A DNA stretch of 64,000 bases from assembly GCA_965219455.1 (NCBI GenBank), contig OZ244744.1, positions 4,512,001-4,576,000 on the forward strand, in the 5' to 3' direction. The stretch is from Candidatus Latescibacterota bacterium. Lineage in GTDB: Bacteria > Latescibacterota > UBA2968 > GCA-2709665. The notes beneath the pieces are model-generated. The model was not told the origin of the DNA. It saw nothing but the letters and a program-made list of their open reading frames with translations, and did not search any database. Both the position numbers and the translations under genes were made by a program. Positions 35,427 to 64,000 of this stretch are shown piece by piece. Position 1 is the first letter of the stretch, and each line of letters opens with the position of its first letter.

Positions 35427-35661
35427 ATAAAGCGCTTGACCGGGCATGCGGAAAAACCAATATTAACAAGTGGATATCGATACATATGTTACGACACAAA
35501 AGCTTGAACGCGGGACGGACCTGCGATATATCCAGGTGTTGCTGGGGCATGCAAGCCCAAAAACCACACAGATCTATACTCGGGTGACGAATCGGGATCT
35601 CGCGAAAATCCAGAGCCCGCTGGATGCATTGATGGAAGAAAGGGAGGCAGTTTTTGATTAG
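35427..35661 (+). pseudogene. tyrosine recombinase/integron-integrase-like C-terminal remnant (copy 1)
   Basis: KALDRAC...SIHMLRH, frameshifting deletion, then LERGTDLRYIQVLLGHASPKTTQIYTRV...SPLDAL. Confidence 0.85.
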
Positions 35662-35798
35662 ATACGATGCCACCATAGGAAGCATTCCTGAACATGTTCG
35701 GGCTACAAGCTTCAAAGTGGGATGTTCCCGAACGTTCGCAGATCTTCGGATCAGGTACGCATTACCGTAACTGTTCGGTAATCCCGTAGTTAGCAGCC
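35662..35798 (+). other. putative attI-like primary recombination site (copy 1), crossover G|TT at 35789
   Basis: Homologous to 45168-45298 up to CGTAGTTA, then diverges; GTTAGCAGCC is the reverse complement of the inverse core of the next attC. Confidence 0.65.
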
Positions 35799-36157
35799 AT
35801 GCCAGTCGAATCCAATGATTGCGAATGACCTCCGTGCCGCTCTGGTTGCGGCGTTACCTGCACTCCTGCTTCCATCCTCATGACAGCGGGGAGGGTCGTT
35901 GAGGTCCTCGGGTTAAACGTGGGAGCGCTGGCAACCAGAGCGTTTTTCGTCCATTCTCTGACTTTGCTCCTGTTGCTCGGGACGATCCTGAGTTGACGGC
36001 GACAGCCGAGCTTGGGCTGCTGCTGGCCGGGTTCAGCCTGATATTTCTCGGCTTCTCGATCATGATGAGCGGCCGTGAATCATGGAAGGCCGTTCTCTGC
36101 GTTCTCCGCGGGCTCTGCGGGTAAAAAAAACCGGTACAGATTTTGGAGGTCATCGCT

Positions 36158-38416
36158 ATGATCAAGCCAAGTCACGAGTGGGTACGGCGGGCGCGCACCT
36201 TTCAGATAGAGCAATACCACCCGCCCTTCTGGCCCGACATCGACTTTGACGCGAAGCAGCTCGTCGATGTCGTGCGGAAATACCACGCCAACGCCATTTG
36301 GTTCGGCAGCGCGGGCAAATGGGCGGTCTTCCCCAATGAGTTCTTTCCCCCGCACCCTCAATTAAGTGAGCGCGACCTGCTCGCCGAGACCATCGCCGAG
36401 GCCCATGCGCGGGACGTGCGCGTCATCGGGTACATTCCCGTGGGGCACATTATTCCCGAAGACAACATGCTGATCCATCATCCGGAGTGGATGTACCGCC
36501 CCAGCCCCGAAGGCGACGCTCCTGTCCTGAGGCACCACGGCGGCGGATTTCACCGGCACGTCTGCTTCAACACACCGTACCGAGAGGCCATCTGCGCTTT
36601 CATCGCACAAGTGGTGGACCACGACGTCGACGCGATCTACACCGATTCTGCCTGTCCTTACCATTCGCACCACACCCCGCAGTCGCCCTTGTGCTACTGC
36701 GACTATTGCCTCGAGAAGTTCGAGAGGCAATTCGGCTGCCCAATGCCGTATGCACCCGATCCGCACAGCCTGCCTCGGGAAGACCAGGAGATGCTGGAAG
36801 AGTGGAGCCTGCAGTACGGCAGGATCGTCGGCGATGTCTTTCTCGAATTCGCCGCCGCGACGCGAAAGAAGAAGGACATCCCAGTGCTGACGCACGGCCT
36901 GGGTGTGGGCGACTGGCCCGAACGCAGGATCGTGGAGGTGCACGATGGACTCCTCTACGAGGCCGGGGGCGACTTCCTTCATCGGCTCGAGGCGGCCAGT
37001 CTGGCCGAGTCGTCGGGTTGGGCCATGTGGCAATACGTCGGCGCCTTGACGGGCTGGTCGCGGGCGCAGTGCTTCGGCATGGAACTCGTCGAGGAGGCGG
37101 CAGCCAGCTTTGCTTCCGGAGGGGCCGTCCTGGTGGCGTGCGGCGTGAACCTTTGGCTGTCGCCTCCCCATAAAGCCAATCGTGAGCTGGCGGAGCTCCT
37201 TGAGATCCTGGAGAGGAACGAGTCACTCTTCGAAGATCTCCACCCGTCACCGTTTGTTGCTATTCCGTTTGTTTTGCCGGTGCGGGTGTATGAGATGCTC
37301 GAGCGGGTGCGGTTCCGCGCCGAGCCCCTGGTGATGCGCGATCGTCGGCACGATGTCATCGGCCAGTCCAAGCAGGACCTCGCCGACCGTCCGGGGGAGC
37401 TCGAGGCCCCGCTCTCCGAGGCGGGCTATCTCGTGCGCACGCCCCCGCAGCAATCCTGCCGTCGCGGGGCCTTCTCGACCATGCTGGCCAACCATTTGCC
37501 GACATCGGTGATCGAGGAGCGGGTTCTCTCCGATCCAGCGGCGTTGGCAAAGTATCCCGTTCTGCTTCTGCCCAACGTCGGCCATCTCACGCGGGAGGAA
37601 GTCGAAGGCATCACGGAATATGTGAAGGCGGGCGGGCGGCTCCTGGCGACGTACCGGACGAGCCTGTACGGTGCCGAGCCCGATGAGATGCGCGACAACT
37701 TCGCCTTGGCGGACCTTCTGGGCGTGGACCGCGTGGACCCGAACCCCGACCAATTCGCTGATTACGAACAACACCTCTGGGCCGCCGGGACGTTCGACAC
37801 GTACGGCTGCTGCGTTCCAGGTCAATGGCTGGCCGAGGGGTGCTCGCATGAGCTGTGGCCGCTCAATCGGTTCGAGTTCGTCCAAGCGCGGCCGGGAACC
37901 GACGTGGTGGCGAACATCGTCTTCGGCGGGCGCGAGGACGACGCTCTGTGTCCCGCCGTCACCTGCCGGACGGTTGGCAAGGGCCGCGTCGTCTATCTGG
38001 CCGCGCCGGTGGAGGAGCTTCATTTCGAATATCGCCTGCTGGTGGTCCGCGATCTTCTGGGCGCCGTGGTGGATTGGCTCTACCCGGAGGGCCGGCCTCT
38101 GATGACCGATGGCCCGAACCAACTCGTGATGATTCCGAATGAGAAACCGGGAAGCCAAGTGTTGTTTCTGATCAATCACACCGGCGAGCGCGTCGAGCAT
38201 CTGCCGGGGATCTGGCCGCGCTTCAGCCCACAGTTTGACTATGTGACCACGATACCCGAAGTGAACCTGCGCTGGCAGCTCACGGAGCGGGGCACTCCTC
38301 GTCGCGTGTGGGACGTTTGCACGGGAGATGACCTGGAGGTCACGTTCGACGGAAACCACTTGGAAACCATATTAACGAACATTGGACAGTACGCGATGAT
38401 TGCCGCTGAGTTCTGA
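36158..38416 (+). CDS. putative glycoside hydrolase (GHL6/GH42-like TIM barrel plus trimerisation domain)
   Basis: RDLLAETIAEAHARDVRV, CFNTPY, CYCDYC, LAKYPVLLLPN..L...V..GGRLLATY.TSL. Confidence 0.7.
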   Translation: MIKPSHEWVRRARTFQIEQYHPPFWPDIDFDAKQLVDVVRKYHANAIWFGSAGKWAVFPNEFFPPHPQLSERDLLAETIAEAHARDVRVIGYIPVGHIIPEDNMLIHHPEWMYRPSPEGDAPVLRHHGGGFHRHVCFNTPYREAICAFIAQVVDHDVDAIYTDSACPYHSHHTPQSPLCYCDYCLEKFERQFGCPMPYAPDPHSLPREDQEMLEEWSLQYGRIVGDVFLEFAAATRKKKDIPVLTHGLGVGDWPERRIVEVHDGLLYEAGGDFLHRLEAASLAESSGWAMWQYVGALTGWSRAQCFGMELVEEAAASFASGGAVLVACGVNLWLSPPHKANRELAELLEILERNESLFEDLHPSPFVAIPFVLPVRVYEMLERVRFRAEPLVMRDRRHDVIGQSKQDLADRPGELEAPLSEAGYLVRTPPQQSCRRGAFSTMLANHLPTSVIEERVLSDPAALAKYPVLLLPNVGHLTREEVEGITEYVKAGGRLLATYRTSLYGAEPDEMRDNFALADLLGVDRVDPNPDQFADYEQHLWAAGTFDTYGCCVPGQWLAEGCSHELWPLNRFEFVQARPGTDVVANIVFGGREDDALCPAVTCRTVGKGRVVYLAAPVEELHFEYRLLVVRDLLGAVVDWLYPEGRPLMTDGPNQLVMIPNEKPGSQVLFLINHTGERVEHLPGIWPRFSPQFDYVTTIPEVNLRWQLTERGTPRRVWDVCTGDDLEVTFDGNHLETILTNIGQYAMIAAEF

Positions 38417-38555
38417 TTGAATCATCGACCTTGCCAGGCTGTTATCCCAACGTCCTTCCCGGAAGCGGGATCGTAAGGCCTCACCACAGAGCCACAGAGG
38501 TCGAATCGTGGAGTAGAGGGGCAGTCGAATGTCTTCCCAGTTCGAATCATGATAT

Positions 38556-38744
38556 GGTGAGACCGACCTCCATCTGCCACCTGGATGGGGGAGGGTCCCC
38601 TATTCCGACGCGATACCTCATCTGAAAGACTACGAAGGTCTTTGGATCCTAGAAGTCCACGAAAGATTCAGGGATAATTGGAGTGGATGCTTGGAAGTGA
38701 TGGAAAGGCTTTTTGAGGCAAAGAACCGAAGCACCGGCTGCTAA
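38556..38744 (+). pseudogene. 3' remnant of a sugar-phosphate isomerase/TIM-barrel cassette gene
   Basis: GETDLHLPPGWGRVPY...WILEV...*, with TAA inside the attC inverse core; no start. Confidence 0.5.
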
Positions 38745-38847
38745 CAGGTCCACTTGCGCTTCGGTCGCTTACGCTCCCTTCGGCCTGACGGCAACCCGCC
38801 TACGCTGACGCTTCGGCGGGTTCGCAAGTGGCCAGAAATCGTTAGCC
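38739..38847 (+). repeat. attC site
   Basis: GGCTGCTAAC...CCACTTGCG/CGCAAGTGG stem...GTTAGCC; similar to 50446-50540. Confidence 0.88.
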
Positions 38848-38946
38848 GCATTGATTTCCATACGTAGTTAGACAGCACGAGACAGCCTGTCCGCACTTTT
38901 ACAGTCCAATTGCGACGCAATTCTTACAGCAACACAAGAGGATATA

Positions 38947-39867
38947 ATGAGTATTGCTACTGAACCCTGCCCTGGGCAGCTACGCCACCACTCTTACGCC
39001 GTGGTGCGCGGTTTGTTCGACGCAGCGACGACAAAACGGCTGCGCGAGATCTGTGAGCGAGTGCTGGAACAGTGGCGGCGCGCTCCTCGCTGTGACAATC
39101 CACCGGTGGGGCCCCAGGCCAATTACATGAGGCACCTGAACGACCCGGAATATCACCGCGATCACCCCGACGATCTCGCCTTTCTGCTCAATGCCATGGG
39201 GTCGCCCCAAGTTGTCGAATCGCTGAGCGCAGCCTTGGATGAAGAATTCCTCTTCGCCTTGAGCAGTCTCTACTGTAATCCGACCGGAGAAAGCCAGGAC
39301 GGATTTTGGCACAAGGACAAGATCGGTGCAGAAGCAGACGTATCCCGGAGACCGGAGACCGGAGCCGGGTTGCAGATGCAAATCGCATTGGTCCCTACCG
39401 ACGATCTCGAATTGGTGCCGGGGTCTCACCTGCGTGACTACTCCCCCGAAGAGCACGCGATCTGCGTCGCCGATGATGGGATCCACAACCGCTCGAACGA
39501 TATGCCTGGCGCCGTTCGTCTCCACCAGGAACCCGGTGACGCGGTGCTGTTTACCCAGTTGTGCATTCATCGGGGCCGCTATCACACCGACAAGCTCAGG
39601 CGCTCGTTGATGATCTCGGTAAAAAAACGGGCCGCCGCAGAGTTCACGATGCGCCAGCGGGGGCTGAACTACGCCAGTGACCAGCCATGGTTTTTGCTGC
39701 CGCAATACTTCGATGGCGTCAGTGAGGATGCGCGAGCGTTCTTCCAGGAATTCGTCGGCTTCTACGCCCCGCATTGGCGCGCCCGGCTGACGGAGGTGTT
39801 GAAGTACTCGAGTCTGGTACAAAGCCTGGTGGAAGCCGGCGAGCCGTACCCGTTTTTTGGTGAATGA
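38947..39867 (+). CDS. phytanoyl-CoA dioxygenase family (Fe/2OG)
   Basis: WHKD, LELVPGSH, PGDAVLF....HRG. Confidence 0.85.
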   Translation: MSIATEPCPGQLRHHSYAVVRGLFDAATTKRLREICERVLEQWRRAPRCDNPPVGPQANYMRHLNDPEYHRDHPDDLAFLLNAMGSPQVVESLSAALDEEFLFALSSLYCNPTGESQDGFWHKDKIGAEADVSRRPETGAGLQMQIALVPTDDLELVPGSHLRDYSPEEHAICVADDGIHNRSNDMPGAVRLHQEPGDAVLFTQLCIHRGRYHTDKLRRSLMISVKKRAAAEFTMRQRGLNYASDQPWFLLPQYFDGVSEDARAFFQEFVGFYAPHWRARLTEVLKYSSLVQSLVEAGEPYPFFGE

Positions 39868-39946
39868 GAAGTCTGTCTGAATGAGTTAGCGGCTACATTT
39901 TGATACATAAGGCCCCGACAATGAACGGATACGAATTAATCACGAC

Positions 39947-40047
39947 GGCTAACACCGGCTTTACGCTTCGGGGCATCCGCCCCTCGGCCCTGCGGGCACA
40001 TGGGCCTTTGGGACTGGCCCACGTCGTAAAGCCAAGAACCGTTAACC
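39947..40047 (+). repeat. attC site
   Basis: CGGCTAAC...GGCTTTACG/CGTAAAGCC...GTTAACC. Confidence 0.88.
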
Positions 40048-41988: not shown

Positions 41989-41989
41989 T

Positions 41990-42322: not shown

Positions 42323-42398
42323 CGTTAACAAAAGATGTGCGGCTCACTACGTTCGCCCAAACCGCCTGCGGCGGCTTCGCACATCAAGCACGTTATGC
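42323..42398 (+). repeat. attC site
   Basis: CGTTAAC...GATGTGCG/CGCACATC...GTTATGC. Confidence 0.85.
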
Positions 42399-43109: not shown

Positions 43110-43252
43110 GCATAACAACGGCACCCCCGGCTTCGGCGCGTCCGCGCCTCCGCGCAACCTGCCTGTCGCTGTCACGGCGCTTGCTTGAAGAAAATCGCGA
43201 GGGGCAAGCGCCGCGCCAGCTTGGCAGGTTCGTGGGTGCTTGACCGTTATGC
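43110..43252 (+). repeat. attC site (long type)
   Basis: TTCGCATAAC is the reverse complement of cassette start GTTATGCGAA; closely similar to 58997-59141. Confidence 0.9.
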
Positions 43253-43338
43253 GCCATGCCGTTTTTTTGTCTGATTCCTTATCGAAAAGGGGGCAAAAAA
43301 CAACCCAGCCCTACCCTGAAGCGCAAGTCATTAAGTAG

Positions 43339-43367
43339 TTGCATTTTCCTATAAATTATTGTAAAAT
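43339..43367 (+). promoter_or_regulatory. cassette-borne sigma70 promoter (likely leaderless mRNA)
   Basis: TTGCAT-N17-TAAAAT, with ATG 6 nt after the -10 box. Confidence 0.65.
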
Positions 43368-43373
43368 ATAATT

Positions 43374-43631
43374 ATGCCGGAGATTAGTCGATTTCTTGGG
43401 ATCGTGATTGGTATGTTTTATCGTGAGCACGGACCACCCCATTTTCACGCCACATACGGTGAATATGACATCACGGTCGATATTGAGACAGGCGTTGTGA
43501 CAGGCCAATTTCCTAGACGGGCTCTGAGGCATGTTCTGGAATGGTATGATCTGCACCAAAGAGAACTGATGGAGAATTGGGAACGCGCAGACCAGCGTCG
43601 TCCGTTGAATAAAATTGCACCCTTGGAGTGA
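43374..43631 (+). CDS. DUF4160 family protein (putative toxin)
   Basis: MPEISRFLGIVIGMFYREHGPPHFHA...W. Confidence 0.9.
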   Translation: MPEISRFLGIVIGMFYREHGPPHFHATYGEYDITVDIETGVVTGQFPRRALRHVLEWYDLHQRELMENWERADQRRPLNKIAPLE

Positions 43632-43635
43632 GAAG

Positions 43636-43905
43636 ATGATACCCCGTGTGATTGAAGCTCACTATGTAGGCGACTATGTGATCTGGCTCAAATTCAGTGA
43701 TGGTGTGGAGGGAGAGGTAGAGTTGAAAGATGAACTATGGGGTCCCGTTTTTGAGTCGTTGAAGGATAAAGAGGAATTCAAGAAATTCCGAGTTCACCCT
43801 GACCTACATACGATAATGTGGAAGAATGAAGCCGACTTCGCACCTGAATTTCTCTACAGTATTGTCAAAGTTACGGCCTGTGTGGGAAGTTTCTTTTTTC
43901 TGTAG
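43636..43905 (+). CDS. DUF2442 family protein (putative antitoxin)
   Basis: LKFSDG.EGEV.L...GPVFESL....F...TIMWKNEADFAPE.LY. Confidence 0.88.
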   Translation: MIPRVIEAHYVGDYVIWLKFSDGVEGEVELKDELWGPVFESLKDKEEFKKFRVHPDLHTIMWKNEADFAPEFLYSIVKVTACVGSFFFL

Positions 43906-44084
43906 CTCATTGAGAAGAAAAAGCAACTCTCCACCTCGGCGGTTTGACTTAATACCGCCGATTTATTTTATCTTGGAAGTTTTTGGAGGTCAAAATCAAG
44001 AAAACCAAAAGAAGGTTATGTCGGCCCCGTTATGGCTTTACCCTCTAGACGACGATCCTAGATGTATTAAAGTTCAGCGCGACG

Positions 44085-44417
44085 GTGGGATTGAGTGGAT
44101 TCCTCCTTCTACTCGTAACCTCGATTAAGTCGTGCGACATAGAGGAAAGCCAACTAGCTCAAATCGAGGCGATGCGAGGACAGTTGTCGCAAGCCAGTGC
44201 GCGAATGGAGCACGTCTTAACCGAGTTGCAGTTACAGAGCGAGCTAATGCGTGAACAGGGCGGCACTTCTATGGCTCTCCTTTCGACAATCGAAAGTATC
44301 GACGAGAGAGTTCAGACTATCTCTGTAGTGACGAACCGCATAGACATGATAGGCGATGAACTAAAGGAGACCCACGAGACTGTGGGTGCTTCCCATAAAA
44401 CGAAAACGCAAGATTAG
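44085..44417 (+). CDS. hypothetical coiled-coil protein, possibly a fragment
   Basis: Hydrophobic start followed by heptad-rich sequence. Confidence 0.4.
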   Translation: MGLSGFLLLLVTSIKSCDIEESQLAQIEAMRGQLSQASARMEHVLTELQLQSELMREQGGTSMALLSTIESIDERVQTISVVTNRIDMIGDELKETHETVGASHKTKTQD

Positions 44418-44732
44418 AACGAATGTCAGCGCCGTTTTCGTTCTTGACAGATCCACCGGTTTCTATTTGAACACGATAACAAAGAACTTCCGACAGACGT
44501 CTAGCTTGTACACAGATAGCCAATCTCTATTACAGAATCCGGGCTCAGGGTTGACCAGTTGCAAGGGAATTCGATGGTTCCCGATCCTTCAATTGTAGTG
44601 ATTGCTTTGCTCATTCTTGCTCCCGTTTTTGTGGGGATTCTCTTTAAGCTCTTCAGCCCCCGAATGCGCTCAGTTACCGATGCGCGAATGCTTATGGCAG
44701 ATGAACAACCGGCCTTCCCTACGTGCCCATAT

Positions 44733-45167
44733 AGAGTGAGACAACCCAGGGGGTATCGCGCGAAAACGCGAAAAGCGTACCTTGGTCACGTCAGACGATT
44801 TGCCAATTATTGCGGCAAGGCACCTCGATCTTTTGGGGAGATGGAGGTCCGAAATTACGTGTATCACCTCCTTGAAACGGGAGCCTCGCACAGTTACGTC
44901 AATCAGTGCGTAAGTGCATTGAAATTCCTGTTCCTTCGAGTGTTGAAAGATCAGCATCCTCTTGAAAACCTGCCCCGTCCGAAAAAAGAGCACAAATGCG
45001 ACACACCTGCTTGAACGCGGGACCGACCTGCGATATATCCAGGTGTTCCTGGGCATGCAAGCCCAAAAACCACACAGATCTATGCTCGGGTGACGAATCG
45101 GGATCTCGCGAAAATCCAGAGCCCGCTGGATGCATTGATGGATGAAAGGGAGGCAGTTTTTGATTAG
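44733..45167 (+). pseudogene. tyrosine recombinase/integron-integrase-like remnant (copy 2) with internal deletion
   Basis: RGYRAKTRKAY...SHSYVNQCVSALKFLF...LPRPKKEHK joined out of frame to ATHLLERGTDLRYIQ...SPLDAL. Confidence 0.88.
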
Positions 45168-45304
45168 AGACGATGCTACCATAGGAAGCATTCCTGAACA
45201 TGTTCGGGCTACAAGCTTCAGCGTGGAATGTTCCCGAACGTTCGGAGATCCTCAGATCTGGTACGCATTAACGTACATGTTCGCCAATGCCGTAGTTATG
45301 CGCC
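45168..45304 (+). other. putative attI-like site (copy 2), crossover G|TT at 45295
   Basis: Homologous to 35662-35792; GTTATGCG matches the inverse core CGCATAAC at 46001. Confidence 0.65.
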
Positions 45305-45365: not shown

Positions 45366-46007
45366 TTGATCCAGATAGGCGACTATTCCTTGGACGATGT
45401 TCTGAAGAAGGCAGACGAACTACGGAAGGAAACTGATGACCTGATCCATCGAAGAGGGTTGGGTCAGATTCTTAGCTCTTTCGGGAGGGTGTGGTATAGA
45501 GGCAGCTACGAACTGAATACAATGGCATGGGCCGACCTAGACATCCACATAGTGATGGAACCTGATCCCTGGTCAGTTGATGAGTTCTTCAAGTTGGGGG
45601 CCCGAATTGCGTCACTTGAGGGGGTGATTTCGATGAAGTTCGATGATTGTGCTCATCATCCTCGGGACGTGCTTCCGGAGGGCCTCTATTGGGGTACACG
45701 AATGGCCAGGGGAAAGAGCGAAATTCCCTGGAAGATAGATTTATGGTCCACAAGATCTGAACTTCTTGAAAGGGACAAGCTTCGGATTGCGAGAGTAAAA
45801 GAGCGAATGACTGAGTCACATCGAAGGAAGATCCTCAAAATCAAACACTCGCTCCTGACACCTGAGGGGAGAACGCCGGACTCGACCGGAAGACATATTT
45901 ACGATGCCATTCTTTTTAAAGGTCTTGAAACTCTTGGGGAAGTTAAAGACTACCTCCGAGCCAAAGGCATAAAGGACTTGCAGGGAAAACACGTGCCGGA
46001 CGCATAA
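45366..46007 (+). CDS. Pol-beta-superfamily nucleotidyltransferase-like protein
   Basis: GSYELNTMAWADLDIHI (GS..DxD) and WKIDLW; stop lies in the attC inverse core. Confidence 0.6.
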   Translation: MIQIGDYSLDDVLKKADELRKETDDLIHRRGLGQILSSFGRVWYRGSYELNTMAWADLDIHIVMEPDPWSVDEFFKLGARIASLEGVISMKFDDCAHHPRDVLPEGLYWGTRMARGKSEIPWKIDLWSTRSELLERDKLRIARVKERMTESHRRKILKIKHSLLTPEGRTPDSTGRHIYDAILFKGLETLGEVKDYLRAKGIKDLQGKHVPDA

Positions 46008-46087
46008 CACGACAGGCTGCGGCTCCGGGGCATTCGCCCCTTCGCTCAACCCGCTGCGCGGGTTCGCAGCCTGCGAGAACGTTAACA
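46002..46087 (+). repeat. attC site
   Basis: GCATAAC...CAGGCTGCG/CGCAGCCTG...GTTAACA. Confidence 0.88.
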
Positions 46088-47694: not shown

Positions 47695-47821
47695 TGTTAA
47701 CAGCGCACTCCCGGCTCGCTTCGCTCGACCAAAATGGCCGTGACTGATTCTCTGACTGATTGTAAAACCACTGATTCCTTCCCCAGGCACGGCCACTTCG
47801 GGAGCGCGCGAACCGTTAAAT
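47695..47821 (+). repeat. attC site
   Basis: TCTGTTAAC is the reverse complement of GTTAACAGA at 46081; GGCCGTG/CACGGCC stem; ends GTTAAAT. Confidence 0.82.
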
Positions 47822-49043: not shown

Positions 49044-49142
49044 ATTTAACATGACGGGCTGAGGCTCCGGCGCTTTCGCGCCTCCGACCCAACCTGCCTA
49101 CGCTGCGCTTCGGCAGGTTCGCAGCCCGCTTGAACGTTAGGG
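49044..49142 (+). repeat. attC site
   Basis: GCATTTAAC is the reverse complement of GTTAAATGC at 47815; CGGGCTG/CAGCCCG stem. Confidence 0.9.
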
Positions 49143-49145: not shown

Positions 49146-50365
49146 ATGCGATCGGATGTTAGGTTTCCGATGACACAGAGGAGAGATGTGAAGGCGTACA
49201 AGGTAGGGCTACCCGGGCTGTTCCTCTTCTTATTTGCGCTCGCCGGCAGTTCCGAATCGATAAAGGAAGAAGGAGGAGCCTTGATGCTTAACGCGTGGGT
49301 TGTCTCGACCCTCAAGGCCGAAGGTCTAGCCCCGGAGCTGATTGCTGACCTAACGGCCAGAATAAGAAACCAGGACTATAAGAATATTCACAGCCTTTTG
49401 ATCGCTCGAAATGGCAACCTGGTTTATGAGGAGTACTTTCCTGGTGCCGATGGAAGGAGAGGAGTCGTCGAATTCGATAAGGAAACTCTGCACGATACAA
49501 GGTCTGTCTCGAAGAGCATCGCATCATCGTTGATAGGCATCGCAATTGACCAAGGATATATCGGGTCAGTTGATGAACCCATGTACCAATATTTTCCGGA
49601 CTACACGAACCACCTGACCGAGCAGAAGAAACGCGTAACTTTGGAACACCTGCTGTCAATGACGGCGGGGTTCAAATGGGATCAATCCGGTTCACATCAG
49701 TCCGAACTCGGATCGGCCAACACGGAAGCGCAAATGGAAAACAGCTTTGATTTCATCGACTACGTGCTGTCCGCCGATATGTCAGCCACAGCTTTGATTT
49801 CATCGACTACGTGCTGTCCGCCGATATGTCAGAGGAGGGAGAGCGTTTCAATTACAATAGCGGCTGCGCCATTCTCCTCGCTGGTGTGATCAGGAACGTA
49901 TCGGGAATGCACGCAGATAAGTTCGCTGACAAGTATCTCTTTGGGCCATTGGGCATCGATCGTAATGAATGGTGGCGAACAAAGACCGGTTTACCACAGA
50001 CACATGCGGGTCTGCGGCTTCGCCCTCGGGATATGGCCAAGATCGGACAGCTTTATCTCAACAATGGGAGATGGAAAGGTCTGCAAATTCTACCCGCATC
50101 GTGGGTTGAGGAGTCCATAAAGCCACACTTCGTAAACGATCGATATGGATACGCCTGGTGGCTCGACCGCTTTCCTTTCCACGAGGGATCCGTCAAGAGT
50201 TACGTCGCTGAGGGCAACGGAGGACAATTCATTTTTGTAATCCCAGACTTGGATTTAGTGGTCGTCTTTACAGGCGGCAACTACGGCTCCTCCACTGCGA
50301 ACCAGGCTTTCAAAATCGTAATCAATCACGTATTGAAAGCTGTTAGCCAAGAAACGAGTGAGTAG
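49146..50365 (+). pseudogene. serine hydrolase (class C beta-lactamase-like family), frameshifted
   Basis: SVSK, LLSMTAG in ORF1; FNYNS, LFGPLGI, RPRDMAKIG, GNGGQ in ORF2; split by the duplication at 49741-49832. Confidence 0.85.
49741..49832 (+). repeat. 45-bp tandem duplication with 2-nt spacer
   Basis: ACAGCTTTGATTTCATCGACTACGTGCTGTCCGCCGATATGTCAG at 49741 and 49788. Confidence 0.95.
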
Positions 50366-50445: not shown

Positions 50446-50540
50446 CCCTAACAGGTCCACTTGCGCTTCGGTCGCGTTCGCTCCCTTCGGCGTGAAGGCA
50501 ACCCGCTAAAGCGGGTTCGCAAGTGGCCAGAACGTTAAGC
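50446..50540 (+). repeat. attC site
   Basis: CCCCTAAC is the reverse complement of GTTAGGGG at 49136; same family as 38739. Confidence 0.9.
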
Positions 50541-52356: not shown

Positions 52357-52443
52357 GCTTAACACCGTGTTTTCGCTGCGCCGCCTACGGCGGCTTGGCC
52401 TTCGGCAACCCCTTCGGGGTTCGCAAACCCTGAAACGTTATGC
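52357..52443 (+). repeat. attC site
   Basis: TCGCTTAAC is the reverse complement of GTTAAGCGA at 50534; ends GTTATGC. Confidence 0.88.
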
Positions 52444-53353: not shown

Positions 53354-53455
53354 GCATAACACGCCCACTTGCGCTGCGGCGCATACGCGCCTTGGCCTTC
53401 GGCAACCCACCTTCGCTACGCTTCGGTGGGTTCGCAAGTGGCGAGAACGATATAT
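53354..53455 (+). repeat. attC site ending in non-canonical G|AT
   Basis: GGCGCATAAC is the reverse complement of GTTATGCGCC at 52437; ends GAGAACGATATATG. Confidence 0.85.
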
Positions 53456-54392: not shown

Positions 54393-54483
54393 ATATATCA
54401 CATCCATTTACGCTACGGGGCATTCGCCCCTTGGCCTTCGGCACCCCGCATACGCGGGGTCGTAAATGGTGAGAACGTTAAAC
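54393..54483 (+). repeat. attC site with non-canonical ATC inverse core
   Basis: CATATATC...CCATTTACG/CGTAAATGG...GTTAAAC. Confidence 0.82.
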
Positions 54484-54999: not shown

Positions 55000-55103
55000 G
55001 GCTAACAACACGTTTGCCGCTACGGCGGCCTCCGCCGCCTTGGCCTTCGGCAACCCACCTTCGCTACGCTTCGGTGGGTTCGCAAGTGGCGAGAACGTTG
55101 GCC
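55000..55103 (+). repeat. attC site
   Basis: GGCTAAC...GTTGGCC; right ~60 bp identical to the 53354 site. Confidence 0.85.
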
Positions 55104-55124: not shown

Positions 55125-56805
55125 CCCCAATTATTCACAAAAAAGGTAGTTTCCTTACCCAAGTCATTGTATTATATTATGGTTAGGTGAATAACCATAC
55201 AACAATGAACTGGGAGGAAACTACCGTGAAAGTTCAAGATAATCAACTCGCACTTCCTTTCGCAAGTGTTTCGGGCAAGCCGGTGGAAGCCGTCTTCGAT
55301 GGCGGTGTGCTCACCAGCGATATGGGGTTGATGCTGCTGCGAGAGGTGGCGTCCAAAATCGGCATCCTGTCTCGGATCGTCGAGGCGTTAACGGACCGTC
55401 GGCATCCAAGTTATGTGGATCACACGATGATGGACCTGATCAGCCAGCGTGTCTTTCAGATCGCGTGCGCGTATGAAGATGCGAACGATTGCAATGCGTT
55501 GCGCGAGGACCCTGCGTTCAAGGCGGCCTGTGATCGGTTGCCGATATCAGGGGCGCCGTTGGCCAGCCAACCCACGATGAGTCGATTGGAAAACGGGATT
55601 CGTCGCAGGGACTTATATCGTATTGCCGAGGCCCTTGTGGACGGATTTATCGCGTCCTACAAAAGGCCTCCCGACGCGGTCGTTCTGGATATCGATGACA
55701 CCGATGACGAGGTTCACGGCAAGCAACAGTTGTCGTTGTTCAATGGCTATTACGATGAACGCTGTTACTGTCCCTTGCACATTTATGAAGGCCGGACAGG
55801 AAGACTGATCACGACGCTGCTGCGTCCGGGCGCCCGTCCTACCGGCAAACAGATTGTCAGCATTCTTAAGCGACTGGTGAAAATCCTTCGTAAGGCGTGG
55901 CCGGACGTGCGTATCTTTTTGCGTGGCGATGGCCATTTTTCCTGTCCTGAGGTCCACGACTTTTGCGACGAGCAAGACGTGTATTTTGTGCTGGGACAGA
56001 CGGGCAATGCCAGGCTTGCACAACGGGGACACGCGTTGATCGAGCAGGCAAAGGCCCAGTATCGGGAAACCGGACAGCCCTTGCAGTTATTTACCTGTTT
56101 CGCTTACCAGGCAGATACTTGGGCCGTGCCAAGGCGCATCATCTACAAAGCTGAAATCACCGCTTCCGGACAAGCCAATACACGCTTTGTCGTCACCAAC
56201 CTGAAAAGTAGCCAGCCCTCATTCATCTACAAAACCGTCTATTGCGCGCGCGGCAGGATGGAAAACTTCATCAAGAATCACAAAACCTTCCTCCATTCCG
56301 ATCGTACCTCCTGCCACACCTTCGAAGCCAATCACTTCCGTCTCTTCCTGCATAGTGCCGCTTATGTCTTGATGCATACCCTTACCGAAAAAGGACTCCG
56401 GGCTACCCAATGGACGCACGCCCAGTTTAATACCATTCAGAATCGCATTCTCAAAGTCGCCGGGCGAGTGTCCGAACTCAAGACCAAAATCAAACTCCAT
56501 TTGCCAACATCATTTCCCTTGAAACACCTTTATGACACCATCCTCTGTAATTTGGCAAAGGCATATCCATAACGCCGTTTCGCGCCGGCCGATCCATCCC
56601 TTTCTCATCGCCACAAAGTAAGACCAAGGCATCCGTCTGTCCTTTCCACACCCTAAATAAAGAACTCGACACCCCTCAATGCTGACGGCACATCCAATAT
56701 TACTCATCATCGCGTCACCAACACGTCATTCGAATATTTCCCCTCCTCCAGAACACTTTCTGCTTCCACAGACACTGCTCTATTCATTTTCATGAATTAA
56801 TCGGG
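55125..56805 (+). mobile_element. IS1380-family insertion sequence
   Basis: Imperfect TIRs CCCCAATTATTCAC/ATGAATTAATCGGG; TTAG direct repeats at 55121 and 56806. Confidence 0.88.
55187..56572 (+). CDS. IS1380-family DDE transposase
   Basis: FDGG.LTSD.G, YEDAND...LR.DP, LASQPTMSRLEN, LDIDDTDD, RGDGHF, YCARGRMEN.IK. Confidence 0.92.
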   Translation: MNNHTTMNWEETTVKVQDNQLALPFASVSGKPVEAVFDGGVLTSDMGLMLLREVASKIGILSRIVEALTDRRHPSYVDHTMMDLISQRVFQIACAYEDANDCNALREDPAFKAACDRLPISGAPLASQPTMSRLENGIRRRDLYRIAEALVDGFIASYKRPPDAVVLDIDDTDDEVHGKQQLSLFNGYYDERCYCPLHIYEGRTGRLITTLLRPGARPTGKQIVSILKRLVKILRKAWPDVRIFLRGDGHFSCPEVHDFCDEQDVYFVLGQTGNARLAQRGHALIEQAKAQYRETGQPLQLFTCFAYQADTWAVPRRIIYKAEITASGQANTRFVVTNLKSSQPSFIYKTVYCARGRMENFIKNHKTFLHSDRTSCHTFEANHFRLFLHSAAYVLMHTLTEKGLRATQWTHAQFNTIQNRILKVAGRVSELKTKIKLHLPTSFPLKHLYDTILCNLAKAYP

Positions 56806-57874: not shown

Positions 57875-57978
57875 GGCCAACACGAGCATCTGCGCTGCGC
57901 TCCACTTCGTTCCGCTCGGGGCTTCGCCCAACCCGCCCAAAAAGCCGGGCGGGTTCGCAGGTTTGCGGGCCGTTAACC
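57875..57978 (+). repeat. attC site
   Basis: TTCGGCCAAC is the reverse complement of GTTGGCCGAA at 55097; ends GTTAACC. Confidence 0.88.
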
Positions 57979-58996: not shown

Positions 58997-59141
58997 GGCT
59001 AACAACGGGCACCCCCGGCTTCGGGGCTTGCACCCCTTCGCGCAACCTGCCTGGCGCTGTCACGGGCGCTTGCTTGATGAGAATCGTGAGGGGCAAGCGC
59101 CGCGCCAGCTGGGCAGGTTCGTGGGTGCTTGACCGTTAGAT
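58997..59141 (+). repeat. attC site (long type)
   Basis: TCGGCTAAC...GTTAGAT; closely similar to 43110-43252. Confidence 0.9.
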
Positions 59142-59244: not shown

Positions 59245-59712
59245 ATGACCCGAAAGAATTCCGAGTGTGAATTCCACGATCCAGGACACTTGGTCGACGG
59301 AGACCTTGAGCTCGTCCTCACCGAGACGCTTCCATCTGATCCTGACACGGGACGGGTGCCGGAGTACCGTTTCGAGATGCGGCTTATTGGCAGCGACGTG
59401 AAGATCGGCAGTATCCGCCTCAGAACGCGGTGCACGGAAAGGCTCGAGCAGTATGGAGGAAATCTGAGCTACGACGTGGACGACGAATATCGCGGGAACA
59501 GATACGCTGCCCGCAGCTGTCGCCTGTTGTTTCCCCTCGCCCTGCGCCATGGGATCAACTCGGTGTTAATCACTTCCCGATCCGATAATCTCGCATCCAG
59601 GAGAACATGTGAGTTGATCGGCGCAGAGTATGTGGACACGATCGAAACGGAACGGGAACCAGGTGAGCATGGGCCGACGTGTCGGTACAGAGTGAACTTG
59701 CGGCCTGAGTAA
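59245..59712 (+). CDS. GNAT N-acetyltransferase
   Basis: GGNLSYDVDDEYRGNRYA, DNLASRRTCELIG. Confidence 0.85.
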   Translation: MTRKNSECEFHDPGHLVDGDLELVLTETLPSDPDTGRVPEYRFEMRLIGSDVKIGSIRLRTRCTERLEQYGGNLSYDVDDEYRGNRYAARSCRLLFPLALRHGINSVLITSRSDNLASRRTCELIGAEYVDTIETEREPGEHGPTCRYRVNLRPE

Positions 59713-59748
59713 CACCGGCGAATCAAGGGCTGCAGCCGACGCCAGGCC

Positions 59749-60246
59749 TTTATGCGCCCGGGTCCCGACGGTCGTTTCGATTCGCGCCAGATTTGGGCCC
59801 TGCCCAACCCGATTGTGATGGGCGACGAAATCTGGTTTTACTATGCCGGCATCAACTACGACCGGGCGGGTCGCAGCGATGCAGCCAACGGCGAGCACAT
59901 CGGCGGCATCGGGCGGGCGGTCATGCGCCTGGACGGCTTTGTTTCGCTCGACGCCCCTTACGAAGGGGGCAAGTTCACCACACCGGCGCTGATATTCGAC
60001 GGATCGCGCCTCGAACTCAATGTCGACACAGCCGCCGGAGGCAGCGTGCGCGTTGAACTACTCGCCGAAGACGGAAGTCCGCTTGAGGGGTATAGTGGCG
60101 CAGATTCAATATGGCACGTCGGCAATTCCGTCAGGCTGCCCGTTTCGTGGCCCGCTGGCGACCTTCGCCAACTCGCCGGCCAACCGGTCAGGATACGCTT
60201 CATCATGCGCGACGCGAAGCTCTACGCATTTCAGTTCTGCGAGTGA
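59749..60246 (+). pseudogene. 3' fragment of a glycosidase-like gene of the 40144-41649 family
   Basis: RLDGFVSLDA...FTT....G.RLELNVD..GG.VRVEL...LYAFQF; N-terminal two-thirds absent. Confidence 0.65.
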
Positions 60247-60393
60247 GAATTTCGACGGGGTTCTGGATGGACACCGAGCCAGCGAGCACGGGCTCTACAA
60301 CATATTGGTCCAGGAACTCACCTGCTTTGGTCGGCGAAGTCTGGCCTTCGCTCTGGAGCCGTTGTAAGACCTGGAGACTTCCAGACCCATTTA

Positions 60394-60828
60394 ATGCGTC
60401 AGATCCTGATCGAAGTCCAAACGGACTCTCTCGCGGTAACGGTTCCAAATGCCGCCGAGACAGGTCGTGTCATGATGGAACTCGCGTGGGAGACTGTTCG
60501 TCTACGGGAATTTCCCCATAGGCCAAGTCGGTTTGATTGCCTGTTTCTCTGGCCGGAAGCGAGTGCTGCCAGACGATTCGACTCCCATAGGGAAGCGTGC
60601 GAACTGTATGATATCGAGATTCTTGAATGCGCGCGCGCGTTCGCTGCTGATATGAACCTGATAAGTTACTTCAAAGAGTTTGAAACCCTTGCATCGATGT
60701 TCGAGAGAGCGCGCCGATACTGGCAGAACGAGAGGAAGGACGAGAACAGGGAGATTCTGTTGGAAGGTACAATTCAGATTCAGTGTCGATCCGTTGGTTT
60801 CGACTGCGTATCGAATATATCAACATAG
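60394..60828 (+). CDS. hypothetical protein (DUF2441-like)
   Basis: E.VRLREFPHRPSRFDCLF and EILLEG motifs. Confidence 0.5.
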   Translation: MRQILIEVQTDSLAVTVPNAAETGRVMMELAWETVRLREFPHRPSRFDCLFLWPEASAARRFDSHREACELYDIEILECARAFAADMNLISYFKEFETLASMFERARRYWQNERKDENREILLEGTIQIQCRSVGFDCVSNIST

Positions 60829-60963
60829 ACCTCCGTCAGTTGCTATCAGGCGAGGAATCGGTACAACAGTAATCTTCTTGTTGAAAAGCAGAAAAACCGG
60901 AAAAACAGAGAAAGTGATGTCCGCTCTTTTATTACATTCCTGATGACAAAAAACAACACGGAC

Positions 60964-61067
60964 GCTTAACACGCGATGCCCGCTACACTCCCTTCGGTCA
61001 TTCGGCCCTCCGGGCACATTACCTCCGCTACGCTCCGGCAACGTTGGGTATCGCGAGGCCGTTAACG
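60964..61067 (+). repeat. attC site
   Basis: GCTTAAC...CGCGATGCCC/GGGTATCGCG...GTTAACG. Confidence 0.85.
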
Positions 61068-61100
61068 GAAATCGCCCCTTTTACCTCACAGGAGGGAAAA

Positions 61101-62414
61101 ATGAAACTCTGGGTATTCACCTGCAGTGACAGCCCGTTCGAACACTGGCTCGACGGGTTCGAGGAGCGGTTCGACGCCTGGGCGGATGGCGGCGTGCGCG
61201 GTCTGGCCGTCGGCCGCATGGCATTCCTCCAGGAGGATGGCACCGCCATTCCGGCGTGGGCTCCCGACCCGAAGGTGTACGAGGCCCTGGGGGCGGAAGT
61301 CCCGGAGCAGCGTCCGCGCGACCTCTCGAAAGAGAAGAAGCTGCACGCAATGCTGGAAAACGCCGCGGAGCGGGGCTGGCGACTGCTGATTTTCGCCGGA
61401 GGCGGCCCGACCGCCCACGTGCAGGACCTAATGAACGCCTTTCCGCAGGTGCACGGCGTCATTGTCGACGGTCCGGGCGAAAACCACTACGAGCTTGCCT
61501 TCCACCACGGGGGCGAACTCCTGGAGATCCGTCCGGGTGAGGAGGGCCGCTTCGCCCAGGTCGGCGCCGAGATTGGTCGAATACAACGCGGCATCACCCA
61601 CTTTCGGGAGCGTTTGCACAATCTGACACCGGAAATGGTGCGGTACCACGCCGACGGGGGGATGCTGGGGGCAATGCTCCTGTTCGACGTCAACGAGGAC
61701 GTGCTCTACTGGCTGCGCAAGCGTCAGGAGCGCTCTCGCTTCGACTGGCAGTACATGCGGCAACAGGTCGACGCCGTCGATCGCAAGGTGGAGTTGGGCG
61801 GTATCCCGCGGGCCGTGACGTGGTCATCGCTCACCGGACAGAATTACTGTCAGATGGCGGAGTATTTCGACTATATCTTTCCGAAACACTATTTTTGGCA
61901 CCGCGGCATGGACGGCATGTACGGAACCATATCCCGCTGGGTAAGACGGTTGCGAAAGTGGAATCCGTCCCTGAGCGAGGCGGAGTGTTTCGCCGTCGTG
62001 AAGGCGCTGTTGGGCATCGAGCTGCCTGGCATCAACTCGCTTATGGACATGGAGATGGGTTTCCCCGACGAATTCTTCTCCAGGGTGGTCTACAACGAGA
62101 CTCGGCGGGCCCTGGCGGCCATAGGTGATCCCGACAAGGTGATAGCCTGGGTGTCCACGGGGCGCCGCCCCCACGGCGGCGACCCGATGCAGGCGCGCGA
62201 TCTCTACGGCATCCTGACTGCTTCGCAGGAGGCGGGGTTGAAGCGCTTCCTATACCATCCCGAGCCGGATTTCGGGGCGGCGGAATGGACCGTCATCTCG
62301 TCGCTGTGCGGAAACCAATGGGATGAAGACGCCGACGGGTACTGGCCGACGGGGACCGACAAGCCAGGCGTCTGGGACGGCGGGCGCGAGGGACCCGAAG
62401 GGGGCCGAATATGA
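61101..62414 (+). CDS. hypothetical protein
   Basis: 437-aa ORF, GGAGGG RBS, GC-rich codon bias. Confidence 0.75.
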   Translation: MKLWVFTCSDSPFEHWLDGFEERFDAWADGGVRGLAVGRMAFLQEDGTAIPAWAPDPKVYEALGAEVPEQRPRDLSKEKKLHAMLENAAERGWRLLIFAGGGPTAHVQDLMNAFPQVHGVIVDGPGENHYELAFHHGGELLEIRPGEEGRFAQVGAEIGRIQRGITHFRERLHNLTPEMVRYHADGGMLGAMLLFDVNEDVLYWLRKRQERSRFDWQYMRQQVDAVDRKVELGGIPRAVTWSSLTGQNYCQMAEYFDYIFPKHYFWHRGMDGMYGTISRWVRRLRKWNPSLSEAECFAVVKALLGIELPGINSLMDMEMGFPDEFFSRVVYNETRRALAAIGDPDKVIAWVSTGRRPHGGDPMQARDLYGILTASQEAGLKRFLYHPEPDFGAAEWTVISSLCGNQWDEDADGYWPTGTDKPGVWDGGREGPEGGRI

Positions 62415-62528
62415 GCAGGATCTCTGACTCGTTGCGGGAGGGTTTCCCGCGGGCGCGAACGATGCGCGGCAAAAACTGAAAGCGCGCAAGAACCACTCCC
62501 CGCCATCTCGAAATTTTGGAGATGTGAA

Positions 62529-63290
62529 ATGAATGATTCCCTGTCATATTCAGTTGCGGTCATTGCAGATATTCACGGCAACGTCGCTGCACTCAACGCT
62601 GTTCTTGAGGATCTGCAAAGCCAACCCTATGATCGTCTGGTGGTCGCTGGCGACCTGGTGCTGAGCGGACCCCGCCCGGTCGAGAGTCTTGACGCAATAC
62701 GAAATCTGGGCGCTCCCACGATTTACGGGAACACAGACCTGTTGGTCTTTGATGAACAGGTTTCCGAGGAAAGACTGGACTGGGTGAGAGAGAAGCTGGG
62801 AACAGATGGCTTGAGCTATCTGAAGGGTCTGCCCTTTGAGTACAGGATAACGCCACCAGGAGGGCAGTCTCCGGAGGATGATCTTCTCATTGCGCACGCA
62901 ACGCCTACTGATGTGACCGGTGTATTGGTTCTTCAACCTGATCAGGATCCGTTCAGGCTTCTGACCGTTACGCCAGAAGAGGAAGCCAGGACACTGATGG
63001 GGGATGCGAAGGCCAATCTGATTGTGGCAGGACACCTTCACTACGCGTCCTATGGCGTTCCGTGCGGTCAGCGATATAGCATCATTGATTCAGTTGGGTT
63101 TCCGTTTGATGGGGATCATCAAGTTGGATATGCCAGAGTGTGGTGGGATGGGCAGGAATGGCTTGTGGAAAACCACAGATTAAGTTACGATTACCACATG
63201 GTTGTGGAGGATGTCAGGTGTTGTGGTGCGCCTTTTGGTGAGTTGTCAGCCCAAAGGATCCTTCAAGCCAGATTCAGGCCGGTCATGTAG
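62529..63290 (+). CDS. metallophosphoesterase
   Basis: DIHGN, GDLV, GNTD, AH, GHLH. Confidence 0.88.
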   Translation: MNDSLSYSVAVIADIHGNVAALNAVLEDLQSQPYDRLVVAGDLVLSGPRPVESLDAIRNLGAPTIYGNTDLLVFDEQVSEERLDWVREKLGTDGLSYLKGLPFEYRITPPGGQSPEDDLLIAHATPTDVTGVLVLQPDQDPFRLLTVTPEEEARTLMGDAKANLIVAGHLHYASYGVPCGQRYSIIDSVGFPFDGDHQVGYARVWWDGQEWLVENHRLSYDYHMVVEDVRCCGAPFGELSAQRILQARFRPVM

Positions 63291-63324
63291 AATCAGAAGC
63301 CTGATGGTGCGCGCTTTATCTCTG

Positions 63325-63378
63325 CCCGTGACAGGCTTCGCCGTGATGGGGCTGCCAGCGGTTTACAGGCCGTTATGC
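63325..63378 (+). repeat. degenerate attC-like site
   Basis: GGCC|GTTATGC end like other sites; left core CCGTGAC only partly matches the expected CCGTTAAC. Confidence 0.35.
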
Positions 63379-63405
63379 GAAGCGGCGAAAAGGAAATAAA
63401 GCGCC

Positions 63406-64000
63406 ATGCTGAATGCCATTCTTTGGGACAACGACGGCGTCCTGGTCGACACCGAAGGCCTGTACTTCCAGGCCTGCCGCGAAACCCTGGAACGCCTCGG
63501 CGTCCGCCTGAGCGAAGCCCGTTTCATCGAGCTCTTCCTCAAGGCCAGCGAAGGCCTTACCAGGATCGGCGCCGAACACGGCATAGACGAACAGGCGCTG
63601 GAGCCCGCCCGCATCTGGCGCAACGCCCGCTACACCGAACTCTTGCGCGCCGGCGTACCCGTCATCGACGGCGCCCGCCAAGTGCTGCGCCAACTCCACG
63701 GCACGGTGCGCATGGGCATCGTCACCAGTTCGCGGCGGGAGCACTTTGAGATCATCCACGCCGCCACCGCCCTGCTGGACTGCATCGATTTCACGCTCGT
63801 GCGCGAAGACTACCGGCATTCCAAGCCCGACCCCGAGCCCTACCTCACGGCCATGCGGCAAAACGGCCTCAGCGCCGCCGAATGCGTCGTAATCGAAGAC
63901 TCGGACCGGGGGCTGCGCGCCGCACTGGCGGCCGGGCTGCGCTGCATCGTCATACCGCAGGGCCTGACGCGCGGCCTGGACTTCACCGGTGCCCTGCGGC
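63406..64000 (+). CDS. HAD-superfamily hydrolase (partial, runs off window end)
   Basis: MLNAILWDNDGVLVDTEG, IVTSS, KPDPEPY, VIEDS; not in the ORF track. Confidence 0.9.
   Translation, partial: MLNAILWDNDGVLVDTEGLYFQACRETLERLGVRLSEARFIELFLKASEGLTRIGAEHGIDEQALEPARIWRNARYTELLRAGVPVIDGARQVLRQLHGTVRMGIVTSSRREHFEIIHAATALLDCIDFTLVREDYRHSKPDPEPYLTAMRQNGLSAAECVVIEDSDRGLRAALAAGLRCIVIPQGLTRGLDFTGALR

Follow-up and report, generated by a model that had tools for sequence, protein, structure and literature searches.

An apparently undescribed integron variant: a cassette array with attC-type hairpins behind decayed, insertion-less IntI-like recombinases in a Latescibacterota genome

We examined a 64,000-nucleotide stretch of the single 5.84-Mb contig of a Candidatus Latescibacterota bacterium (G000:C1:4512001-4576000, hereafter the window; positions with the prefix w are counted from its first letter, also past its end) and detected a long array of gene cassettes, closed by attC-type hairpins and headed by decayed recombinase genes, each of which is followed by an attI-like site. 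We consider it likely that the array belongs to a non-canonical class of sedentary chromosomal integrons, and that the recombinase family, which is related to the integron integrase IntI and lacks its additional domain, is the cognate integrase. It appears to be an undescribed integron variant, of which the window holds a decayed member. An earlier sequence-only reading of the same DNA had proposed an integron-like cassette system with attC-type hairpins, and this was borne out by strand-specific model matches, covariation in the stems, and the footprints left at cassette starts.

From about w35400 on, the G+C content drops from about 0.60 to 0.50-0.58, every substantial open reading frame (ORF) lies on the + strand, and repeats of 30-70 nt recur in the gaps between the genes of the array. 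The cassettes begin at w35789 and span at least w35789-w102724 on the + strand (at least 67 kb) and contain no fewer than 34 attC sites supported by the model, of which the window holds 15. The hairpins between the genes share one layout, in which an R'' ending in AAC is followed by 4-6 unpaired bases and a 7-11-bp L''/L' stem that encloses one or two GC-rich sub-hairpins, and then by 6-9 unpaired bases and an R' beginning with GTT. The covariance model R1 was trained on the 15 window sites, delimited by hand and aligned. RNAalifold predicted the L''/L' stem plus an inner stem for these sites, and 13 of the 15 predicted base pairs keep pairing despite changes on both sides. All 15 training sites score at E ≤ 1.4e-7:

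38739-38847, + strand: attC site (R1 92.4 bits, E 7e-20)
39947-40047, + strand: attC site at the end of the PhyH-dioxygenase cassette (R1 75.6 bits)
42323-42398, + strand: attC site (R1 52.6 bits)
43110-43252, + strand: attC site of long form at the end of a NUDIX cassette (R1 68.6 bits; R'' TTCGCATAAC matches the cassette start at 10/10 bases)
46002-46087, + strand: attC site (R1 73.5 bits)
47695-47821, + strand: attC site (R1 42.2 bits)
49044-49142, + strand: attC site (R1 82.4 bits)
50446-50540, + strand: attC site (R1 84.8 bits)
52357-52443, + strand: attC site (R1 57.8 bits)
53354-53455, + strand: attC site with R' GAT instead of GTT (R1 95.6 bits; matching ATC in the R'' of the next site)
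54393-54483, + strand: attC site with R'' ...ATATATC (R1 76.6 bits)
55000-55103, + strand: attC site (R1 84.7 bits)
57875-57978, + strand: attC site (R1 65.2 bits; R'' TTCGGCCAAC matches at 10/10 bases)
58997-59141, + strand: attC site of long form (R1 62.1 bits)
60964-61067, + strand: attC site (R1 72 bits)
61061-64000 and on, + strand: array beyond the window (next sites at w64256 and w70388, further sites to at least w102724)

The only other window match of R1 at E ≤ 1 is a single minus-strand overlap (E 0.71); there was no match in w1-35000 and none in the twelve control loci, each of 20 kb, taken from this genome (L106-L117; 240 kb). The model recovered 19 sites on which it had not been trained in the 40 kb past the window, all on the + strand, and weaker + strand matches run on to about w150000. 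The sequence-only reading had counted at least 16 attC hairpins; 15 are supported by the model, and the possible sixteenth (about w63290-63380) receives no R1 score. Rfam gave no gathering-level match over 104 kb.

Cassette starts carry the footprint of their own hairpins. For each model site, the 7 bases leading up to its own AAC were compared with the 7 bases that follow GTT at the junction before it, and at least 6 of the 7 bases were complementary in 15 of 34 cognate pairs versus 21 of 1224 non-cognate pairs. The claim that cassette starts are reverse complements of their own inverse core was correct for the examples then quoted, GTTAGCAGCC/GGCTGCTAAC and GTTGGCCGAA/TTCGGCCAAC, which are exact, and at this threshold the pattern extends to 10 of the 15 window sites, not to all. 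The misses cluster at long cassettes, where intermediate sites have probably been missed. Two cassettes carry GAT/ATC in place of GTT/AAC, both at the start and in their own R'', a paired change that is hard to account for unless both derive from a single circular site. The first cassette is one example of the relation:

35789-38841, + strand: cassette 1, with a GHL6-type glycosyl-hydrolase-like gene (36143-38416; Pfam); read as its reverse complement, the start GTTAGCAGCC is identical to the R'' at the attC site 38739

Three decayed copies of a recombinase gene were detected, two of them in the window, and all are co-oriented with the cassettes:

35426-35661, + strand: recombinase copy 1, C-terminal end only, from box II to the stop (...LERGTDLRYIQVLLGHASPKTTQIYTRV...SPLDAL...; PF00589, E 1.3e-6; positions 269-315 of TIGR02249, the IntI model)
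35662-35791, + strand: attI-like site 1, about 130 bp, ending in CCGTAG|TTA with the G at w35789, with repeated GTTCGG/CCGAAC boxes and conserved in six genomic copies
44559-45167, + strand: recombinase copy 2, an N-terminal SAM-like domain fused to the last ~55 residues (PF13495, E 2.7e-15; compared with the intact orthologue of the sister species G013)
45168-45297, + strand: attI-like site 2, crossover G at w45295, 92% identical to site 1
w71289-71694, + strand: recombinase copy 3 with attI3, about 7 kb past the window end

The match of copy 1 ends at the last residue of the TIGR02249 model, and homology of its region to G013 begins at w35426. Copy 2 has lost the catalytic core and carries a frameshift in the tail, and both window copies are without the middle of the gene, as the comparison with the intact G013 gene confirms for an observation already made from the letters alone. 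That both remnants point the same way as the cassettes, and that these begin about 130 bp after the stop, held equally, with the first cassette starting at the G of w35789, 128 bp after the stop of copy 1. The roughly 130 bp that follow each recombinase copy are 88-92% identical between copies, all end in CCGTAG|TTA, and diverge thereafter. We found the same stretch at three further places in the genome (six copies in all) and beside the recombinase genes of the related genomes G047 (intact, 78% identical), G013, and G011, where the similarity again ends at GTTA. The att site once suspected downstream of the recombinase was thereby located, since the conserved stretch ends exactly where cassette-specific sequence starts in all six genomic copies and in the three relatives. 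Its repeated GTTCGG/CCGAAC boxes are putative binding sites.

The outlying attI-like copies differ in what surrounds them. Upstream of the copy at 2.05 Mb the 3' end of a recombinase gene is still readable, and upstream of that at 4.60 Mb the resemblance to the recombinase gene is, on our reading of the alignment, only partial. Two copies are solitary and lie far from the main array: the one at genome positions 2047697-2047879 (L106) has no attC match near, and the one at 4733671-4733804 (4.73 Mb; L103) has one attC-model match about 1 kb downstream. Within the array, a module on the + strand at 43252-45295 comprises a toxin-antitoxin-like DUF4160/DUF2442 pair (43374-43905), a 110-aa ORF, recombinase copy 2, and attI2, and an identical 10-nt sequence lies on either side of it (at 43246 and 45295). 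Because of this bracketing, we speculate that the platform of recombinase and attI may itself move like a cassette. No protein in this genome scores over the TIGR02249 cut-off, and besides two Xer genes the matches to the family are remnants alone. As no intact copy was found in the genome, the array is probably frozen unless the recombinase is supplied in trans.

Intact relatives reveal what the remnants have lost. A search with the N-terminal remnant returned P0001, a protein of 376 aa that is 98% identical to the remnant and whose C-terminus equals copy 1 save for the last three residues. The orthologous position in G013 is occupied by an intact gene for a 333-aa protein, followed by the same first cassette, at about 99% DNA identity; this gene corresponds to copy 2 of our genome with its middle retained. 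Aligned with the canonical IntI of genome G017, the family is missing about 40 consecutive residues between the region of the beta-hairpin lysine and box II; the spacing from GK..R to HxLRH is 65-68 residues in the family versus 107 in five canonical IntI. The sequence-only reading had advised finding an intact homologue and trying it on the IntI model, and both G013 and P0001 supply one, intact, without the insertion, and below the TIGR02249 cut-off. All 11 family members tested score 199-232 bits against that cut-off of 265, with a best stretch that reaches only model positions 171-181 and a second stretch listed for most, versus 464.6 bits in one stretch for the canonical IntI of G017. The R, K, H, R, H, Y catalytic columns are invariant across the alignment of the family with canonical IntI, and the SP.D tail is invariant in all 18 rows, reading SPLD in every family member, including the remnants, with L replaced by A in the canonical IntI of G017.

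The predicted structure (AlphaFold; predicted local distance difference test, pLDDT, 82.5) has only a 17-residue loop at the place of the insertion, and its best Foldseek matches are XerA (5hxy) and VchIntIA (2a3v), with a top E of 4.6e-15. Against the XerC/XerD models (cut-offs 335/330 bits) the family reaches at most 194 bits. On the XerA model NF040815 (cut-off 220) P0001 scores 222.7 and P0022 228, seven others score 205-219, and the frameshifted P0013 scores 111.9. In a quick maximum-likelihood tree of 66 proteins, which held no XerA and no Treponema IntI, the family groups with canonical IntI in a single clade, separate from XerC/XerD (100% in the SH-like approximate likelihood ratio test, SH-aLRT), and canonical IntI is one branch (99%) among insertion-less ones. 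The suggestion that the enzyme belongs to a short Xer-like clade and not to the IntI1 type was right, with one qualification: the family has no insertion and stays below the TIGR02249 cut-off, and the phylogeny that had been called for groups it with IntI. From sequence comparison we place the recombinase in the IntI/XerA-like branch of the simple tyrosine recombinases, where it seems better described as IntI-like without the insertion than as Xer-like. Two long Xer-like genes of this genome (L001, L003) were considered as the integrase and rejected; they group with E. coli XerC/XerD.

The same layout recurs in other genomes. We scanned one genome per species, which yielded 80 loci, and ran on them R1 and a second model, R2, rebuilt from 35 sites of several lineages and GC-biased. 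R2 gave 20 matches in 1.07 Mb of loci, and all 17 on the + strand lie downstream of the recombinase, in eight loci:

Latescibacterota, + strand: L022
Gemmatimonadaceae, + strand: L023
Spirochaetota, + strand: L025 and L026
Bacteroidia, + strand: L036
Flavobacteriia, + strand: L043, L044, and L061

The gemmatimonadal locus L023 is laid out as an intact gene, about 165 bp, GTTATGTGTC, two ORFs that we read as a toxin-antitoxin-like gene pair, and eight sites whose footprints match. Six further loci (G047, two adjacent stretches of G013, G011, and two loci of G017) gave 33 matches, all 33 co-oriented with and downstream of the recombinase. On two Bacteroidota plasmids (Rufibacter and Chryseobacterium) small genes in the same orientation line up behind the recombinase gene, the gaps between them contain hairpins, and on the Rufibacter plasmid (L118) the attI junction and the first attC match at 10/10 bases. 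Both plasmid gene rows hold IS110-family transposases, and that of Chryseobacterium also holds a group II intron; IS110-family elements and group II introns are known to target attC sites.

The three minus-strand R2 matches lie upstream of two recombinases of the Patescibacteria group, in the classical divergent layout. These matches (L073, 247-5373, and L077, 8206-8367, both on the minus strand) come from two metagenome-assembled genomes, and the recombinase downstream of them is short, with no room for the IntI insertion. The patescibacterial recombinase, about 284 aa matched over query residues 79-368, adjoins canonical IntI on the tree with weak support. At two loci of G017 (L012, 1441-3682, and L016) a canonical IntI gene is followed directly, in the same orientation, by the gene of a 284-aa insertion-less recombinase; at one of the two the IntI is truncated. 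Genome G020 carries short relatives (314 aa, about 51% identical) in six near-identical copies.

Related arrays have also turned over, the one indirect sign of recombination by the encoded enzyme. Genomes G013 and G011 have cassettes in common with this genome at 97-99% identity, in different order and with different content; in G011 the same attI is followed by another first cassette, and insertion sequence (IS) copies stand at other positions. Some breakpoints fall at attC sites (e.g., w58985 and w64335) and others do not. Inside the array itself, two stretches of cassettes are duplicated at 98-99% identity (w38848-40060 with w78049-79283, L008; w67168-68476 with w79348-80656).

Most full-length members of the family carry about 70 extra N-terminal residues, with a predicted beta-beta-alpha-beta-beta-alpha fold. 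Pfam HARP (PF07443; cut-off 25 bits) gave 13-16 bits, below threshold, in three of five proteins, and the best Foldseek match of the isolated domain was the HARP domain of SMARCAL1 (4o66, E 0.023). In a VIA-align comparison with 48,161 chains, HARP reached Z 3.4 and the best score, Z 5.3, went to unrelated CASTOR proteins. A profile of nine such domains matched 4531 representative proteins at E ≤ 0.001. Ten of these matches were examined: six are tyrosine recombinases with 2-4 stretches each, two are SNF2 helicases, and two consist of HARP repeats only. Both helicases (P0100, P0185) pass the Pfam HARP cut-off and match the profile at E about 1e-17 to 1e-21. We therefore call the N-terminal domain of most members HARP-type, a name that sequence similarity suggests, and hypothesize that it reads folded attC DNA. 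Copy 2 in the window is without it. In a metagenome-assembled genome (MAG) of an Undinarchaeales archaeon (L020, 8469-11041), two HARP-recombinase copies stand in tandem, and the contig ends right after the second.

We propose that the system would work from a platform made of a recombinase gene co-oriented with the cassettes and an attI of about 130 bp after its stop, with the crossover at CCGTAG|TTA. Cassettes, each ending in an attC hairpin (R''-L''...L'-R') and most of them with one or two genes on the + strand, would enter as circles at G|TT, leaving each start complementary to its own R''. The recombinase, which lacks the IntI additional domain (the I2 helix) and in most members bears one or more N-terminal HARP-type domains, would catalyze both attI x attC and attC x attC exchange, and the HARP domain may help it read folded DNA.

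The most serious competing explanation, which we regard as unlikely, is that the array is an ordinary cluster of attC sites lacking integrases (CALIN) whose canonical IntI has been lost, so that the cassettes were built by a canonical IntI, possibly in trans, and the recombinase is a passenger or selfish module. Canonical IntI over the cut-off does occur in 6 of 61 related genomes, and in the array-bearing G017 and G062. Copy 2 with its attI is bracketed like an inserted element, G020 contains relatives of the recombinase in several identical copies, one plasmid has a relative beside an IS91 transposase, and the passenger reading is the one that the accessible part of Cury 2016 takes for the cases then known. 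However, the gene always stands at the 5' edge of the array in one orientation, and the conserved non-coding site behind it ends exactly at the G|TT of the first cassette. Canonical IntI over the cut-off is absent from this genome and from four of the five other array-bearing genomes tested, and no strong model matches adjoin the canonical IntI of G017 and G062. The recombinase is, moreover, a close relative of IntI and not a random integrase.

A second alternative, that the hairpins are a repeat family such as repetitive extragenic palindrome (REP)-like or terminator-like sequences and the remnants unrelated prophage or Xer debris, we consider highly improbable. GC-rich genomes are indeed rich in stable hairpins, and generic hairpin scans gave 2-17 matches per strand in each 20-kb control locus. 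Simple attC scans (strict RYYYAAC/GTTRRRY pairing, exact 9-mer stems, and generic AAC...GTT hairpins) were dropped, as most sites were missed or the background was symmetric between strands; pattern scans missed most sites because R' within an array is a hybrid. The model matches, in contrast, are strand-specific (34 of 34 on the + strand) and absent from the 240 kb of controls. Cassette starts complement their own R'', including the two compensating GAT/ATC cassettes, related species differ in cassette content and order, and the same type of site lies beside homologous recombinases in other phyla. Just as improbable is a canonical "inverted" (Treponema-type) integron whose remnants are insertion-less only because they are broken: the relevant region is indeed deleted in both window copies, but this is refuted by the G013 orthologue, an intact gene at the same position that has no insertion, shares its first cassette with the window, and agrees with it at about 99% of DNA positions. 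P0001 (98% identical) and G047 are likewise intact and insertion-less.

Several points weigh against a non-canonical integron with this family as its integrase. The activities that we ascribe to the enzyme are all inferred. For IntI1 the additional domain has been reported as necessary for activity (Messier and Roy 2001, as cited in Cury 2016), gain of the I2 helix is regarded as the step that enabled single-strand recombination (eLife 2020, PMC7790495), and recombinases without intI_Cterm beside attC sites were judged not to be IntI (Cury 2016), as far as the accessible parts of these papers go. Our tree, from a quick search, has a weakly supported backbone (82-88% SH-aLRT). Of the 49 loci that, by our own tally, have at least 2 kb downstream, only 7 gave co-oriented sites with R2, and many short relatives, such as alphaproteobacterial ones, have no match at all. 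AT-rich Bacteroidota gave weak R2 matches only (E 0.0087 to 0.8): the two plasmids gave five over that range, and four Flavobacteriia loci searched with filters off gave three (E 0.26-0.67), all on the + strand and downstream, in both cases too weak to count. G017 and G062 also encode a canonical IntI, which might work in trans. HARP cannot be a requirement for every member, since neither the intact G013 orthologue nor L022 carries the domain. Lastly, the plasmid relative beside the IS91-family transposase (H12, Clostridium estertheticum) counts here as well: because short relatives lack matches and one adjoins such a transposase, the wider clade is not uniformly array-linked, and part of it seems to belong to insertion sequences.

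A broader proposition also follows the integron reading, and we hold the evidence for it to be evenly balanced. It states that cassette capture at attC without the IntI additional domain defines a widespread, overlooked class in Bacteroidota (including plasmids), Gemmatimonadota, Latescibacterota, Spirochaetota, and the class of this genome; that its recombinase genes are co-oriented with their arrays and have attI after the stop codon; that one to four N-terminal HARP domains, by recognizing folded or branched attC DNA, replace the I2 helix in many members; and that canonical IntI may be a derived branch of an older attC-recombining family. Attention may extend to Patescibacteria, where attC-model matches lie beside related recombinases, and to a MAG of a DPANN archaeon with tandem gene copies and no array on the contig.

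The genes carried by the cassettes are of mixed function. By Pfam they include the GHL6-type hydrolase, the PhyH dioxygenase, two NUDIX proteins, and the DUF4160/DUF2442 pair, along with an alpha/beta hydrolase, lumazine synthase with a deaminase, a split beta-lactamase-fold hydrolase, a methyltransferase with an APH-family kinase, SAICAR synthetase, a GNAT acetyltransferase, and a metallophosphoesterase. A 45-nt stretch of the beta-lactamase-fold serine-hydrolase gene is exactly duplicated in tandem (49741-49785 and 49788-49832), and the duplication splits the gene into the overlapping ORFs 49146-49889 and 49811-50365. One cassette (w55097-57972) holds an insertion sequence:

55187-56572, + strand: IS transposase (DDE_Tnp_1_4; Pfam E 1e-155)

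IS copies about 75% identical to this element occupy three other array positions in the sister species G013 (L133/L134).

The detection, counting, and explanation of integrons all rest on a single criterion, an integrase with the additional domain. If the broader proposition is true, surveys undercount integrons and label such arrays orphans, and many CALINs would be complete integrons; the account in which the I2 helix enabled single-strand recombination would then need revision or a second solution. The HARP fusion offers a concrete, testable idea of how a recombinase may read folded DNA, and hosts that are cultivable, non-pathogenic, and equipped with intact systems are at hand in Rufibacter tibetensis (plasmid 1) and Flavobacterium aciduliphilum DSM 25663. 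Almost no complete integrons have been reported in Bacteroidetes, according to the accessible part of the IntegronFinder 2.0 paper. In the literature searched, no insertion-less or HARP-fused recombinases with attC arrays were described, though the supplementary list in Cury 2016 of 21 non-IntI integrases near attC may include some.

Among known proteins, XerA (NF040815; PDB 5hxy, 4a8e) is, together with IntI, the best sequence-model and fold match of the family and is likewise insertion-less. XerA resolves chromosome dimers at dif and, to our knowledge, has not been linked to cassette arrays; unlike the family described here, it has neither a HARP domain nor an attI/attC context. Classification work has already met insertion-less relatives of IntI: among the simple tyrosine recombinases, the integron-like subgroup has an insertion that "is not fully conserved" (Smyshlyaev et al. 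2021); the accessible part of that study makes no link to attC arrays, attI, or HARP. Cury et al. 2016 defined IntI by intI_Cterm and, in the part of the paper available, listed 50 other recombinases near attC. The system here differs from integrons as IntegronFinder defines them in that the family lacks the additional domain and fails TIGR02249, the gene is co-oriented with its cassettes, attI follows the stop codon, and many members carry HARP. Co-orientation, which the sequence-only reading had stressed, is real and by itself not new, as intI is co-oriented with the cassettes in Treponema-type integrons (Cury 2016); in archaeal integrons, attI lies immediately downstream of intI and the additional domain is present (Ghaly 2022). 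The accessible reports on both give their integrases the IntI-specific domain, whereas the family here is without it.

In most other respects the array resembles the sedentary integrons of the Vibrio type, with which it shares a long array whose cassettes lack promoters, mostly hold one gene, and vary in function, toxin-antitoxin-like pairs among them, as well as R''/L''/L'/R' hairpins, insertion at G|TT, homogeneous attC sites within an array, IS copies in the array, and a recombinase of the same clade. The unpaired spacers, 4-5 nt on the 5' side versus 7-9 nt on the 3' side in our models, are more asymmetric than the values usual for canonical sites. By the software definition (at least two attC sites and no protein over the IntI threshold in the genome) the array fits a CALIN; unlike a CALIN, it has a platform of its own, with recombinase remnants and attI at its 5' edge that are intact in relatives.

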